This document shows positions 16,024 through 24,124 of a DNA stretch of 64,000 bases, one piece after another. The position numbers and the translations under genes were made by a program. The stretch is from Escherichia coli (GTDB lineage Bacteria > Pseudomonadota > Gammaproteobacteria > Enterobacterales > Enterobacteriaceae), in assembly GCF_044324785.1 (NCBI RefSeq), contig NZ_CP172127.1. One strand, 5' to 3'. Position 1 is the stretch's first letter. The number at the start of each line of letters is the position of its first letter. The notes beneath the pieces were generated by a model. It had not been told where the DNA came from and searched no databases. It saw only the letters and a program-made list of their open reading frames with translations.

Positions 16024-17130
16024 ATGAATGTGTTGCGTAGTGGACTCGTGACGATGCTGCTGCTGGCTGCCTTTAGTGTTCAGGCAGCCTGCAACTGGCC
16101 TGCCTGGGAGCAGTTCAAAAAGGATTACATCAGTCAGGAAGGGCGCGTCATTGACCCAAGTGACGCGCGTAAAATCACCACCTCTGAAGGGCAAAGTTAC
16201 GGCATGTTCTTTGCCCTGGCGGCTAACGACCGTGCAGCTTTCGATAATATTCTCGACTGGACGCAGAACAATCTCGCTCAGGGTTCTTTAAAAGAACGTT
16301 TGCCCGCCTGGCTGTGGGGCAAGAAAGAGAACAGTAAGTGGGAAGTGCTGGACAGCAATTCGGCCTCCGATGGTGATGTCTGGATGGCCTGGTCGTTGCT
16401 GGAGGCGGGGCGTTTGTGGAAAGAGCAGCGTTATACCGACATCGGCAGCGCGTTGTTAAAACGTATTGCGCGGGAGGAAGTGGTGACGGTGCCTGGGCTG
16501 GGTTCCATGTTGTTGCCGGGCAAAGTGGGATTTGCAGAGGATAACAGCTGGCGTTTTAACCCCAGCTACCTGCCGCCGACGCTGGCGCAGTATTTCACCC
16601 GCTTTGGCGCGCCGTGGACTACGCTGCGCGAAACCAATCAACGTTTATTGCTGGAAACCGCCCCGAAAGGCTTTTCGCCAGACTGGGTGCGCTATGAGAA
16701 AGACAAAGGCTGGCAGCTAAAAGCCGAAAAAACATTGATCAGCAGCTACGACGCGATCCGCGTTTACATGTGGGTAGGCATGATGCCTGACAGCGATCCG
16801 CAAAAAGCGCGGATGCTCAACCGGTTTAAACCGATGGCGACATTCACCGAGAAAAACGGCTATCCGCCAGAAAAAGTGGATGTGGCTACGGGGAAAGCGC
16901 AGGGTAAAGGACCGGTCGGTTTTTCTGCCGCCATGCTGCCCTTTTTACAAAACCGCGATGCGCAGGCCGTTCAGCGCCAGCGCGTGGCCGATAACTTTCC
17001 CGGCAGCGATGCCTATTACAACTATGTGCTGACCCTGTTTGGACAAGGCTGGGATCAACACCGTTTCCGCTTCTCGACAAAAGGTGAGTTATTACCTGAC
17101 TGGGGCCAGGAATGCGCAAATTCACACTAA
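16024..17130 (+). CDS. bcsZ: Endo-1,4-beta-glucanase BcsZ (GH8)
   Basis: 368 aa with signal peptide; immediately after bcsB. Confidence 0.9.
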
Positions 17131-20100
17131 ACATATTCACGCTTTCCCTCGGGCTGGCCGTCATGCCGATGGTCGAGGCAGCACCAACCGCTCAGCAACA
17201 GTTGCTGGAGCAAGTTCGGTTAGGCGAAGCGACCCATCGTGAAGACCTGGTGCAACAGTCGTTGTATCGGCTGGAACTTATTGATCCGAATAACCCGGAC
17301 GTCGTTGCCGCCCGTTTCCGTTCTCTGTTACGTCAGGGCGATATTGATGGCGCGCAAAAACAGCTCGATCGGCTGTCGCAGTTAGCGCCGAGTTCAAATG
17401 CGTATAAATCGTCGCGGACTACGATGCTGCTTTCCACGCCGGATGGTCGTCAGGCACTGCAACAGGCAAGATTGCAGGCGACGACTGGTCATGCAGAAGA
17501 AGCTGTGGCGAGTTACAACAAACTGTTCAACGGTGCGCCGCCGGAAGGTGACATTGCTGTCGAGTACTGGAGTACGGTGGCGAAAATTCCGGCTCGCCGT
17601 GGCGAAGCGATTAATCAGCTAAAACGCATTAATGCGGATACGCCGGGCAATACGGGCCTGCAAAACAATCTGGCGCTATTGCTGTTTAGTAGCGATCGCC
17701 GTGACGAAGGTTTTGCCGTCCTGGAACAGATGGCGAAATCGAACGCCGGGCGCGAAGGGGCCTCTAAAATCTGGTACGGGCAGATTAAAGACATGCCCGT
17801 CAGCGATGCCAGTGTGTCGGCGCTGAAAAAATATCTCTCGATATTTAGCGATGGCGATAGCGTGGCGGCTGCACAATCGCAACTGGCAGAACAGCAAAAA
17901 CAGCTGGCCGACCCTGCTTTCCGCGCTCGTGCGCAAGGTTTAGCGGCGGTGGACTCTGGTATGGCGGGTAAAGCCATTCCCGAACTACAACAGGCGGTGC
18001 GGGCGAACCCGAAAGACAGTGAGGCTCTGGGGGCGCTGGGCCAGGCGTATTCTCAGAAAGGCGATCGCGCCAATGCGGTGGCGAATCTGGAAAAAGCCCT
18101 CGCCCTGGATCCGCACAGCAGCAACAACGACAAATGGAACAGTCTCCTGAAAGTAAACCGCTACTGGCTGGCGATCCAGCAGGGCGATGCTGCGCTGAAA
18201 GCCAATAATCCTGACCGGGCAGAACGCCTGTTCCAGCAGGCGCGTAATGTCGATAACACCGACAGCTATGCAGTGCTGGGGCTGGGCGATGTGGCGATGG
18301 CGCGCAAAGATTATCCCGCCGCTGAACGCTATTACCAGCAGACGCTGCGTATGGACAGTAGCAACACTAACGCCGTGCGCGGGCTGGCGAAGATTTACCG
18401 CCAGCAGTCGCCAGAAAAAGCCGAAGCGTTTATCGCCTCGCTCTCTACCAGTCAGCGGCGCAGCATTGATGATATCGCACGCAGCCTGCAAAACGACCGT
18501 CTGGCACAGCAGGCAGAGGCACTGGAAAAGCAGGGCAAATGGGTGCAGGCGGCAGCACTTCAGCGGCAACGACTGGCGCTGGACCCCGGCAGTGTATGGA
18601 TTACTTACCGACTTTCACAGGATCTCTGGCAGGCCGGACAACGCAGCCAGGCTGATACATTAATGCGCAATCTGGCACAGCAGAAGCCGAACGACCCGGA
18701 GCAGGTTTACGCTTACGGGCTGTATCTCTCTGGCCATGACCAGGACAGAGCGGCGCTGGCGCATATCAACAGCCTGCCGCGCGCGCAGTGGAACAGCAAT
18801 ATTCAGGAACTGGTTAATCGCCTGCAAAGCGATCAGGTGCTGGAAACCGCTAATCGCCTGCGAGAAAGCGGCAAAGAGGCAGAAGCGGAAGCGATGCTGC
18901 GCCAGCAACCGCCTTCCTCGCGTATTGACCTCACGCTGGCTGACTGGGCGCAGCAGCGACGTGATTACACCGCCGCCCGCGCTGCTTATCAGAACGTTTT
19001 GACGCGGGAGCCAACTAACGCCGATGCCATTCTTGGTCTGACGGAAGTGGATATTGCTGCCGGTGACAAAGCGGCGGCACGTAGCCAGCTGGCGAAGCTG
19101 CCTGCCACCAATAACGCCTCGCTGAACACTCAGCGGCGCGTGGCGCTGGCACAGGCGCAGCTTGGCGATACCGCAGCGGCGCAGCAGACATTTAATCAGT
19201 TGATCCCGCAGGCAAAATCTCAGCCACCGTCGATGGAAAGCGCGATGGTGCTGCGCGACGGTGCGAAGTTTGAAGCACAGGCGGGCGATCCAAAGCAGGC
19301 GCTGGAAACCTACAAAGACGCCATGGTCGCATCCGGTGTGACCACGACGCGTCCGCAGGATAACGACACCTTTACCCGGCTGACCCGTAACGACGAGAAA
19401 GATGACTGGCTGAAACGCGGCGTGCGCAGCGATGCAGCGGACCTCTATCGCCAGCAGGATCTTAACGTCACCCTCGAGCACGATTACTGGGGTTCGAGCG
19501 GCACCGGTGGTTACTCCGATCTGAAAGCGCACACCACTATGTTGCAGGTGGACGCGCCGTATTCTGACGGGCGGATGTTCTTTCGCAGTGATTTCGTCAA
19601 TATGAACGTCGGCAGTTTCTCCACTAATGCCGATGGTAAATGGGATGACAACTGGGGCACCTGTACATTACAGGATTGTAGCGGCAACCGCAGCCAGTCG
19701 GATTCCGGTGCCAGCGTGGCGGTCGGTTGGCGAAATGACGTCTGGAGCTGGGATATCGGCACCACGCCGATGGGCTTCAACGTGGTGGATGTGGTCGGCG
19801 GCATCAGTTACAGCGATGATATCGGGCCGCTGGGTTACACCGTTAACGCCCACCGTCGGCCCATCTCCAGTTCTTTGCTGGCCTTTGGCGGGCAAAAAGA
19901 CTCCCCGAGCAATACCGGGAAAAAATGGGGCGGCGTGCGTGCCGACGGCGTGGGGCTAAGCCTGAGCTACGATAAAGGTGAAGCAAACGGCGTCTGGGCA
20001 TCGCTTAGCGGTGATCAGTTAACCGGTAAAAATGTCGAAGATAACTGGCGCGTGCGCTGGATGACGGGCTATTACTATAAGGTCATCAACCAGAACAATC

Positions 20101-20585
20101 GCCGCGTCACCATCGGCCTGAACAACATGATCTGGCATTACGACAAAGACCTGAGTGGTTACTCACTCGGTCAGGGCGGTTACTACAGCCCGCAGGAATA
20201 CCTGTCGTTTGCCATACCGGTGATGTGGCGGGAGCGCACGGAAAACTGGTCGTGGGAGCTGGGGGCGTCTGGCTCGTGGTCGCATTCACGCACCAAAACC
20301 ATGCCGCGTTATCCGCTGATGAATCTGATCCCGACCGACTGGCAGGAAGAAGCTGCGCGGCAATCGAACGATGGCGGCAGCAGTCAGGGCTTTGGCTACA
20401 CGGCGCGGGCATTACTTGAGCGACGTGTTACTTCCAACTGGTTTGTCGGCACGGCAATTGATATCCAGCAGGCGAAAGATTACGCACCCAGCCATTTCCT
20501 GCTCTACGTACGTTATTCCGCCGCCGGATGGCAGGGTGACATGGATTTACCGCCGCAGCCGCTGATACCTTACGCCGACTGGTAA
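17112..20585 (+). CDS. bcsC: Cellulose synthase outer membrane/TPR subunit BcsC
   Basis: 1157 aa, N-terminal signal peptide, TPR-like Ala-rich repeats and C-terminal beta-barrel-like region. Confidence 0.92.
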
Positions 20586-20666
20586 GTTTTCAGATAGCGC
20601 CTCTCTTAATGCCGCTGCGATCGGGTATACTCGGGCGGCAATCTGGGATTTCCGGGGGGAGACAAT

Positions 20667-22655
20667 TTGCGCGTAAGTCGCTCGTTAACAATCAAGCAGA
20701 TGGCAATGGTGGCAGCCGTTGTCCTGGTGTTCGTTTTTATTTTTTGCACCGTTTTGCTGTTCCATCTGGTCCAGCAGAATCGCTATAACACGGCTACGCA
20801 ACTGGAAAGCATTGCTCGCTCTGTCCGCGAACCCTTATCTTCAGCTATTTTGAAAGGCGATATTCCCGAAGCGGAAGCTATTCTTGCCAGCATTAAACCG
20901 GCAGGCGTGGTCAGCCGTGCCGATGTGGTGCTGCCCAACCAGTTCCAGGCGCTGCGTAAAAGTTTTATTCCAGAGCGTCCGGTGCCGGTAATGGTTACTC
21001 GCCTGTTTGAGCTACCGGTGCAAATCTCGCTGGGCGTTTACTCGCTCGAACGTCCGGCAAATCCGCAGCCAATTGCCTATCTGGTGCTACAGGCGGATTC
21101 CTTCCGTATGTATAAGTTCGTGATGAGCACCCTCTCAACGTTAGTGACCATTTACTTACTTTTGTCGCTAATATTGACTGTGGCGATTAGCTGGTGCATT
21201 AACCGACTGATTTTGCATCCGTTACGCAATATTGCTCGTGAACTTAACGCCATCCCAGCCCAGGAGCTTGTTGGTCACCAACTGGCATTACCACGTCTGC
21301 ATCAGGACGATGAAATCGGTATGTTGGTGCGTAGTTACAACCTCAACCAGCAATTGCTGCAGCGCCATTATGAAGAACAGAACGAAAACGCGATGCGCTT
21401 CCCGGTGTCGGATTTGCCGAACAAAGCCTTGCTGATGGAGATGCTGGAGCAGGTGGTGGCGCGTAAACAAACTACCGCGCTGATGATCATCACCTGTGAA
21501 ACCCTGCGTGATACTGCGGGTGTGCTGAAAGAGGCGCAAAGAGAAATTCTGCTGCTGACGCTGGTGGAAAAACTCAAATCGGTACTGTCGCCACGTATGA
21601 TCCTCGCGCAGATTAGTGGTTATGACTTTGCTGTCATTGCCAATGGTGTACAGGAACCGTGGCACGCAATCACTTTAGGTCAGCAAGTGCTCACTATCAT
21701 GAGCGAGCGCCTGCCGATTGAACGTATTCAACTCCGTCCGCACTGTAGCATTGGCGTGGCGATGTTCTACGGCGATCTCACCGCCGAACAGCTTTACAGT
21801 CGCGCTATTTCTGCGGCATTTACCGCTCGCCATAAAGGCAAGAATCAGATTCAGTTCTTTGATCCGCAGCAGATGGAAGCCGCCCAACAGCGGTTGACGG
21901 AAGAGAGCGATATCCTTAATGCACTGGAAAATCATCAGTTTGCGATTTGGTTACAGCCACAGGTCGAGATGACCAGCGGTAAACTGGTCAGTGCGGAAGT
22001 GTTACTGCGTATCCAGCAACCGGATGGCAGTTGGGATCTGCCGGATGGCTTAATCGATCGCATTGAGTGCTGTGGGCTGATGGTTACCGTCGGTCACTGG
22101 GTGCTGGAAGAGTCCTGTCGACTGCTGGCTGCCTGGCAAGAGCGCGGCATTATGCTGCCCTTGTCGGTAAACCTCTCAGCGCTGCAACTGATGCACCCGA
22201 ATATGGTAGCGGATATGCTGGAACTGTTAACCCGCTATCGCATTCAGCCGGGAACACTGATTCTGGAAGTGACAGAAAGCCGACGTATTGACGACCCTCA
22301 TGCTGCGGTGGCAATCCTCCGTCCGTTGCGTAATGCCGGAGTTCGGGTGGCGCTGGATGATTTCGGCATGGGCTATGCGGGGCTGCGTCAGCTGCAGCAT
22401 ATGAAATCGTTGCCAATCGACGTACTGAAAATCGACAAAATGTTTGTTGAAGGCTTGCCGGAAGATAGCAGCATGATTGCTGCAATTATCATGTTGGCGC
22501 AAAGCCTGAACTTACAAATGATTGCCGAAGGCGTGGAGACTGAAGCACAACGCGACTGGCTGGCAAAAGCGGGCGTTGGTATTGCCCAGGGCTTCCTTTT
22601 TGCTCGCCCACTCCCTATTGAAATCTTCGAAGAGAGTTACCTGGAAGAAAAGTAG
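20667..22655 (+). CDS. pdeK: c-di-GMP phosphodiesterase PdeK (HAMP-GGDEF-EAL)
   Basis: 662 aa; N-terminal TM helix, degenerate GGDEF region and EAL domain; apparent TTG start after a GGGGGGAG run (ATG alternatives exist downstream). Confidence 0.85.

Positions 22656-22801: not shown

Positions 22802-24124
<1,323 letters not shown>

Follow-up and report, generated by a model that had tools for sequence, protein, structure and literature searches.

In Escherichia coli K-12, PdeK (YhjK, b3529) is a phosphodiesterase with the domain order GAPES3-HAMP-degenerate GGDEF-EAL and a local action on cellulose synthase (PMC7397504). Activity against c-di-GMP has been reported for the cytoplasmic moiety of the K-12 protein (PMC7397504, Figure 2 legend). 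The curated MG1655 gene (NP_417986.4; complement 3683630..3685618) is 1989 nt long, encodes 662 aa and opens with a TTG codon; the start codon is not discussed in the PdeK papers PMC7397504, PMC4143323 and PMC5635695. The wider protein family is described by the NCBIfam equivalog model NF008807, 'biofilm formation regulator HmsP', named after Yersinia HmsP.

UUG starts approximately 3% of E. coli genes, and in reporters, initiation at AUG, GUG and UUG ranges over 10-100% of that at AUG (10.1101/063800). Genome-wide, selection favours AUG, and the proteins of AUG genes are more abundant on average. Non-AUG starts carry stronger and better-conserved Shine-Dalgarno (SD) sequences, and AUG is replaced by GUG or UUG far less often than these are replaced by AUG (Belinky, Rogozin and Koonin 2017; PMC5622118). 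A general remark in the initial annotation, that non-ATG starts tend to go with low translation, is in line with this literature (10.1101/063800, PMC5622118). The AUU starts of infC and pcnB are sub-optimal codons that have been kept in evolution, as has the TTG of pdeK, and IF3 discriminates against non-AUG codons, which makes output depend on the fidelity of initiation (10.1101/063800). The two cases differ in that AUU is a rare non-canonical start, whereas UUG is one of the three canonical ones.

We analysed a stretch of 64,000 nucleotides of E. coli DNA (contig NZ_CP172127.1), hereafter called the window, from a strain that is not K-12. The locus order is bcsC, pdeK, dctA (22838-24124), which places pdeK between bcsC and dctA. 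A 401-nt stretch across the start region is found in 5,424 of 5,426 complete E. coli genomes; the genes it covers there are annotated as bcsC and hmsP. The NF008807 model scores 781.1 bits (cutoff 733) and aligns end to end, with model positions 1-663 of 670 on residues 2-659 and the N-terminal tail included. Downstream of this tail, the protein comprises the following parts.

20700 to 20771, plus strand: TM1, residues 12-35, a Kyte-Doolittle hydrophobic segment followed by the periplasmic GAPES3 domain
20772 to 21131, plus strand: GAPES3 periplasmic sensor domain, residues 36-155 (Pfam PF17154, E = 2.5e-46)
Residues ~157-180: TM2, within a second hydrophobic segment at 150-184
21198 to 21359, plus strand: HAMP linker after TM2, residues 178-231 (Pfam PF00672, 21.2 bits, below the gathering score of 25)
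21405 to 21848, plus strand: degenerate GGDEF domain, residues 247-394 (Pfam PF00990, E = 2.7e-11)
21909 to 22610, plus strand: EAL phosphodiesterase domain, residues 415-648 (Pfam PF00563, E = 3.8e-60)

GAPES3, GGDEF and EAL all exceed their Pfam gathering scores. The initial annotation had described a HAMP-GGDEF-EAL protein; these domains are present, but the layout was incomplete and reads GAPES3-HAMP-GGDEF(degenerate)-EAL according to both Pfam and PMC7397504. By model score, architecture and genomic position, the gene belongs to the HmsP/PdeK orthologous group, and it encodes a predicted inner-membrane c-di-GMP phosphodiesterase adjoining the cellulose (bcs) operon. It shares with K-12 pdeK the TTG start, the length of 662 aa, the start-region sequence and the domain order. 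The window allele differs from the MG1655 coding sequence by 43 nucleotides and three amino acids (K199Q, K408Q and G599E relative to MG1655), none of them near the start.

The features around the start site are as follows.

17112 to 20585, plus strand: bcsC, the upstream gene (open reading frame and annotation), with its stop codon TAA at 20583-20585, 81 nt 5' of the pdeK start
20607 to 20609, plus strand: in-frame TAA that closes the pdeK frame on its 5' side (window sequence)
20626 to 20631, plus strand: TATACT, the putative -10 element of a dedicated pdeK promoter, suggested by its conservation
20654 to 20663, plus strand: G-rich Shine-Dalgarno run GGGGGGAGAC, with the GGAG core at 20658-20661
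20667 to 20669, plus strand: TTG, the curated and PGAP initiation codon of pdeK, conserved in orthologs
20667 to 22655, plus strand: complete pdeK (yhjK/hmsP) coding sequence, 662 codons plus stop
20670 to 20699, plus strand: codons 2-11, predicted cytoplasmic tail, with the positive residues R2, R5 and K10 and no acidic residues
20700 to 20702 and 20706 to 20708, plus strand: alternative in-frame ATGs at codons 12 and 14, rejected as main starts

The initial annotation had proposed that pdeK starts at TTG, behind a G-rich SD-like run, with the first in-frame ATGs 11 and 13 codons downstream. All three statements stand. The curated record, PGAP and the full set of orthologous sequences agree on the TTG. 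The comparison with the curated PdeK start suggested there gives a match: the first codon of b3529 is the same TTG and the start-region sequence is identical between MG1655 and the window. In three further genomes, PGAP has hmsP begin at this base as well. The TTG start of pdeK is thus correct, already known and ordinary, and our finding restates the accepted curated annotation. The additions made here are a near-decisive comparative proof of the start, the invariance of TTG across the order, and the N-terminal truncation of many database entries.

Within the window, TTG 20667 is the first start-capable codon after the in-frame stop, as no ATG, GTG or TTG occurs from TAA 20607-20609 to this position. 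It is preceded by an SD sequence that is stronger than background and lies at a functional distance. The predicted anti-SD duplex energy 5' of TTG is -9.4 kcal/mol, a value attained at just 0.5% of the positions sampled in the window, and the GGAG core is separated from TTG by the 5-nt spacer ACAAT. Further upstream, the exact TATACT hexamer is found within 70 nt 5' of TTG in 53 of 81 loci in a conserved context. A sigma-70 and terminator consensus scan of 20300-20900 made no calls, TATACT included.

To compare the start across Enterobacterales, we used a scan with one genome per species, which yielded 80 orthologous loci from approximately 25 genera with 65-98% protein identity, or 81 sequences with the window. 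Because the region of interest itself contains one of the six peptides used for the search (TIKQMAMV), the sample is biased to conserved residues 8-15, though not to the TTG, the SD sequence or residues 2-7. Eight distant orthologs were added outside the scan (Pectobacterium, Sodalis, Rouxiella, Pantoea, strain LUAb1, Affinibrenneria, Baumannia and one metagenome contig), giving a full set of 89 orthologous sequences from approximately 30 genera and several families of Enterobacterales.

All 80 species-representative loci align from query residue 1. TTG occupies the aligned codon in every sequence, 81/81 in the scan set, 8/8 among the distant orthologs and 89/89 overall, and no change of the TTG is inferred on the tree of 81 sequences. 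Rouxiella, the representative of Yersiniaceae, has the TTG start too. A GGAG lies 5-8 nt 5' of TTG in 87 of the 89 sequences, mostly at 7 nt and with 33 different spacer sequences between the two, while the remaining two sequences carry GGGGGA. The mean anti-SD energy 5' of TTG among orthologs is -6.95 kcal/mol. The combination of a non-AUG start with a strong, conserved SD sequence matches the pattern described by Belinky, Rogozin and Koonin (PMC5622118).

Downstream of TTG, the amino acids of codons 2-11 are invariant in 81/81 sequences, yet each position is encoded by 2-4 synonymous codons. On a neighbour-joining tree of the 81 sequences, the changes inferred in these codons are 77 synonymous and 0 nonsynonymous, and the tail is more conserved than TM1, which follows it. 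Upstream of GGAG, the leader diverges among orthologs and is not conserved as protein; the distance to the nearest upstream in-frame stop ranges from 5 to 96 codons, and start-like codons upstream in other species occur at positions that are not conserved. Synonymous-only change that begins at codon 2 and is absent upstream is the signature of a coding region with its 5' boundary at TTG. Together with the conserved position of the codon in orthologs, this makes the comparative case for the TTG start close to decisive.

We therefore take TTG 20667-20669 to be the true start codon of pdeK, and probably its only significant one, with a probability of roughly 0.92; its use by ribosomes is what we infer from these sequence comparisons. 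In the proposed mechanism, the 30S subunit would be positioned through pairing of the 16S rRNA 3' end with GGAG 20658-20661, and initiator tRNA would read the near-cognate UUG 5 nt downstream. The protein would then begin with fMet-Arg-Val-Ser-Arg-Ser-Leu-Thr-Ile-Lys-Gln, an 11-residue tail with three positive charges. This tail would stay cytoplasmic beside TM1, resulting in an N-in topology that would make GAPES3 periplasmic and HAMP, GGDEF and EAL cytoplasmic. The tail contains three K/R and no D/E residues directly before the hydrophobic stretch 12-35. According to the positive-inside rule, a positive tail anchors the N-in orientation, and because of its three positive charges, the tail is expected to do so in PdeK.

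Masking of the start by mRNA structure finds no support in the predicted folds. The leader and early coding sequence fold no better than shuffled sequences (z = -0.19), and the centroid structure leaves the SD sequence and TTG unpaired. A UUUCC/GGAGA hairpin that appears in one minimum free energy fold was rejected: it is absent from the centroid, and its pairing sequence is, by eye, not kept in other genera.

Published start-mapping data sets were searched for the gene as well. The available supplements of TRAINSPOTTER N-terminomics, Salmonella riboproteogenomics and INRI-seq contain no yhjK, pdeK, b3529, hmsP or STM3615, and the start-mapping literature searched gave no start-site profile or N-terminal peptide for pdeK, neither at TTG nor at a downstream ATG. 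In the Cappable-seq supplements, no coordinates near pdeK occur in either MG1655 coordinate version. Deduced from the sequence, tryptic digestion would reduce the tail to MR, VSR and SLTIK, so that shotgun proteomics would probably have missed it.

An alternative that we consider improbable is dual initiation, in which TTG gives rise to the main, full-length PdeK while a minor fraction of ribosomes starts at AUG12 and produces a proteoform without the tail. Internal in-frame starts have been documented genome-wide in E. coli (Ribo-RET preprint), and ATG12 is invariant in 89/89 sequences despite variable residues after codon 12. This invariance of Met12 is, however, equally well explained by a conserved SLTIKQM protein motif, and AUG12 lacks an upstream SD sequence in every ortholog (mean anti-SD energy +0.68 kcal/mol).

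The same invariant Met12 could be taken to mean that pdeK starts only at ATG codon 12 (20700) or codon 14 (20706), which would result in a protein of 651 or 649 aa and reduce TTG to the first start-like triplet of the frame. ATG is by far the commonest start, used by 83% of E. coli genes (10.1101/063800) and by 32 of the 35 curated coding sequences neighbouring pdeK. Furthermore, automated calls in ENA, Logan and NCBI let many E. coli entries begin at Met14 (MVAAVV...) and some at Met12 (MAMV...). Against this, codons 2-11 evolve as coding sequence and are better conserved than TM1, which would not be expected of an untranslated leader; this pattern leaves a start at either ATG close to refuted. 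An SD sequence is absent at both ATGs, where the anti-SD energies of +0.1 (ATG12) and -1.6 kcal/mol (ATG14) are background values compared with that at TTG, and Met14 is replaced in 9 of the 89 sequences. In the predicted E. coli fold, both ATGs lie within the stem of the only stable hairpin of the region. A protein starting at either one would lose all three positive charges that flank TM1. The initial annotation had stated that an ATG start would remove part of the N-terminal region ahead of the TM helix; removal is indeed the consequence, but it would concern the whole cytoplasmic tail rather than a part, as Met12 and Met14 already belong to the TM1 stretch. We consider a sole start at these codons very improbable.

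Initiation 5' of TTG, either at an in-frame CTG (20643) or in an overlapping ATG open reading frame of another frame (20609..20788), with TTG as an internal Leu codon, is practically negligible: a few database proteins (P0070, P0074, P0077 and P0105) do read TTG through as Leu, and one frameshifted assembly (P0006) joins the 20609 frame to pdeK, but the window offers no ATG, GTG or TTG in the interval, the upstream in-frame candidates of other species were rejected for lack of conservation in position or as protein, the frame at 20609..20788 was rejected because it is open in just 5 of 81 orthologs, and the conserved GGAG is spaced for TTG and not for any upstream codon.

With TTG as the preferred start, the question arises whether TTG itself, or merely any start codon, is under selection, as ATG and GTG would be able to initiate too. 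Changes from T to A and from T to G are transversions, and we hence counted the minimum number of transversions at the first base of TTG and at 57 fourfold-degenerate sites of pdeK. The first T has undergone 0 transversions, while the fourfold sites have a mean of 10.8 and only one of the 57 has zero (empirical P ~0.02-0.03, a test that is moderately strong only). The fourfold sites of codons 2-8 are slow too, with 1, 4, 0, 5 and 6 transversions, and against these neighbours the invariance of T is only modestly significant (P ~0.04). Slow synonymous sites near start codons are common.

Neither A nor G was found at the first base of TTG in any species of the set of 89 sequences. In the E. coli population, an 81-nt segment spanning the start has the same sequence in 5,357 of 5,424 genomes, and none of the 5,424 combines an ATG or GTG start with an otherwise unchanged segment. 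Among the 67 genomes with differences in this segment, the most divergent was the sole one inspected; its G-run is one base shorter, and GGAG and TTG are intact. Among the 35 curated neighbouring genes, pdeK is the only one with a TTG start. The gene for PdeH uses ATG; PdeH is an abundant phosphodiesterase (PMC7397504).

Taken together, TTG specifically, and not just any start codon, may have been selected, an indication of moderate strength at most. pdeK runs against the genome-wide trend to AUG, as its UUG has not switched in 89 sequences, and this places the gene in the minority for which PMC5622118 allows that a weak start may be maintained. A strong SD sequence with an unswitched UUG is compatible with such maintenance. 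The weak codon may lower PdeK output. One possible explanation, which we put at somewhat below even odds, is that TTG has been kept over ATG and GTG by selection for a limited initiation rate in an enzyme of low copy number and local action, whose level would be set by the strong SD sequence. More tentatively still, the active retention of TTG may date back to before the split of the Enterobacterales families, either because it caps PdeK to the low stoichiometry of a DgcC-PdeK-cellulose synthase complex, or because it couples PdeK output to initiation fidelity (IF3) and, through this, to growth state.

For work on the protein family, the immediate consequence is that the many public entries with Met12 or Met14 as first residue are 11-13 residues too short. 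What they miss is the most conserved segment of the N-terminal region, and with it the positive charges that are expected to give TM1 its orientation. The N-terminal tail should therefore be kept when PdeK/HmsP is cloned, tagged or modelled.

A selected weak start in pdeK would not change views on c-di-GMP signalling or on translation initiation. The order-wide TTG, held against the general drift to AUG, does provide a neat case of a weak start that may be under selection, in a signalling enzyme of low abundance and local action. If TTG is indeed actively kept, a change from TTG to ATG would overproduce PdeK and suppress cellulose production.

The first ten codons that follow the pdeK start TTG change slowly at synonymous positions. 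Codons 2-11 (window 20670-20699) show between 2 and 11 third-position changes per codon, against a mean of 20.7 at fourfold sites across the gene, which suggests an additional nucleotide-level constraint on the translation-initiation region. Structure prediction places a single stable hairpin near the pdeK start, and an ORF in another frame overlaps that start:

20697-20726, predicted hairpin with a 9-bp stem formed by GGCAAUGGU and GCCGUUGUC, spanning the downstream in-frame codons ATG12 and ATG14
20609-20788, ORF of 59 codons with an ATG start, in a different frame from pdeK and overlapping its start

Residues 16-19 of PdeK, which lie in the region of the hairpin, differ across genera. The overlapping ORF is open in just 5 of the 81 orthologous loci, and we therefore reject it as a real gene and regard it as a chance ORF. 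One frameshifted public assembly (P0006) joins this ORF to pdeK.

A metagenome contig (L090) carries ATGTTG at positions 401-406, with the ATG immediately 5' of the conserved TTG and 4 nt past the GGAG core. This is the sole sequence in which an ATG could have replaced the TTG as start, by way of one added codon. Numerous public PdeK entries, drawn from ENA, Logan and JGI as well as some NCBI records, start further downstream, either at Met14 (P0001-P0005, P0007, P0008, P0013, P0025, P0034, P0039 and P0055) or at Met12 (P0026, P0050, P0066, P0080, P0111, P0112, P0116 and P0118), so that the conserved 11-residue tail is missing from them. Some of the clusters of PdeK entries represent hundreds of sequences each.

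Upstream of the start, the bcsC-pdeK spacer probably holds a dedicated pdeK promoter (window 20598-20640), judging by the recurrence of one element in orthologous loci:

20626-20631, TATACT, putative pdeK promoter element

An exact TATACT lies within 70 nt 5' of the TTG in 53 of the 81 orthologous loci, where chance would give about 1.6% per locus. Its conserved surroundings read CTCTCTTAA-N13-GATCGGG-TATACT-C; this context lacks a good -35 element, and a sigma-70 consensus scan did not call the TATACT. Klebsiella, Raoultella and Silvania have TATAAT instead, and Kluyvera has TTGACT-N17-TATTCT in its place. From the position of the element, the pdeK leader in E. coli would be ∼27-29 nt long.

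The window derives from a strain other than K-12. Its pdeK (20667-22655) differs from that of MG1655 at 43 of 1989 nt, with the amino-acid differences K199Q, K408Q and G599E. Over the 401 nt that surround the start, the window matches strain 120899, among many others, at 100% identity.

Among distant orthologs, dctA (SDF family) also adjoins pdeK downstream in Pectobacterium (L084), Rouxiella (L086), strain LUAb1 (L088) and Affinibrenneria (L089). The 5' neighbour differs among these four loci (bcsG, a PhoPQ-related gene or a beta-lactamase-family gene), and the linkage of pdeK to bcsC is thus not universal. The Pectobacterium and Brenneria relatives (L084 401-1585 in Pectobacterium; proteins P0082-P0119) are only 385-401 aa long, comprising GAPES3 and a faint GGDEF domain with EAL absent. 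Their genes adjoin a dctA-like SDF transporter gene, retain the TTG with its SD and still encode the tail; these short proteins look like an EAL-less variant of HmsP/PdeK.
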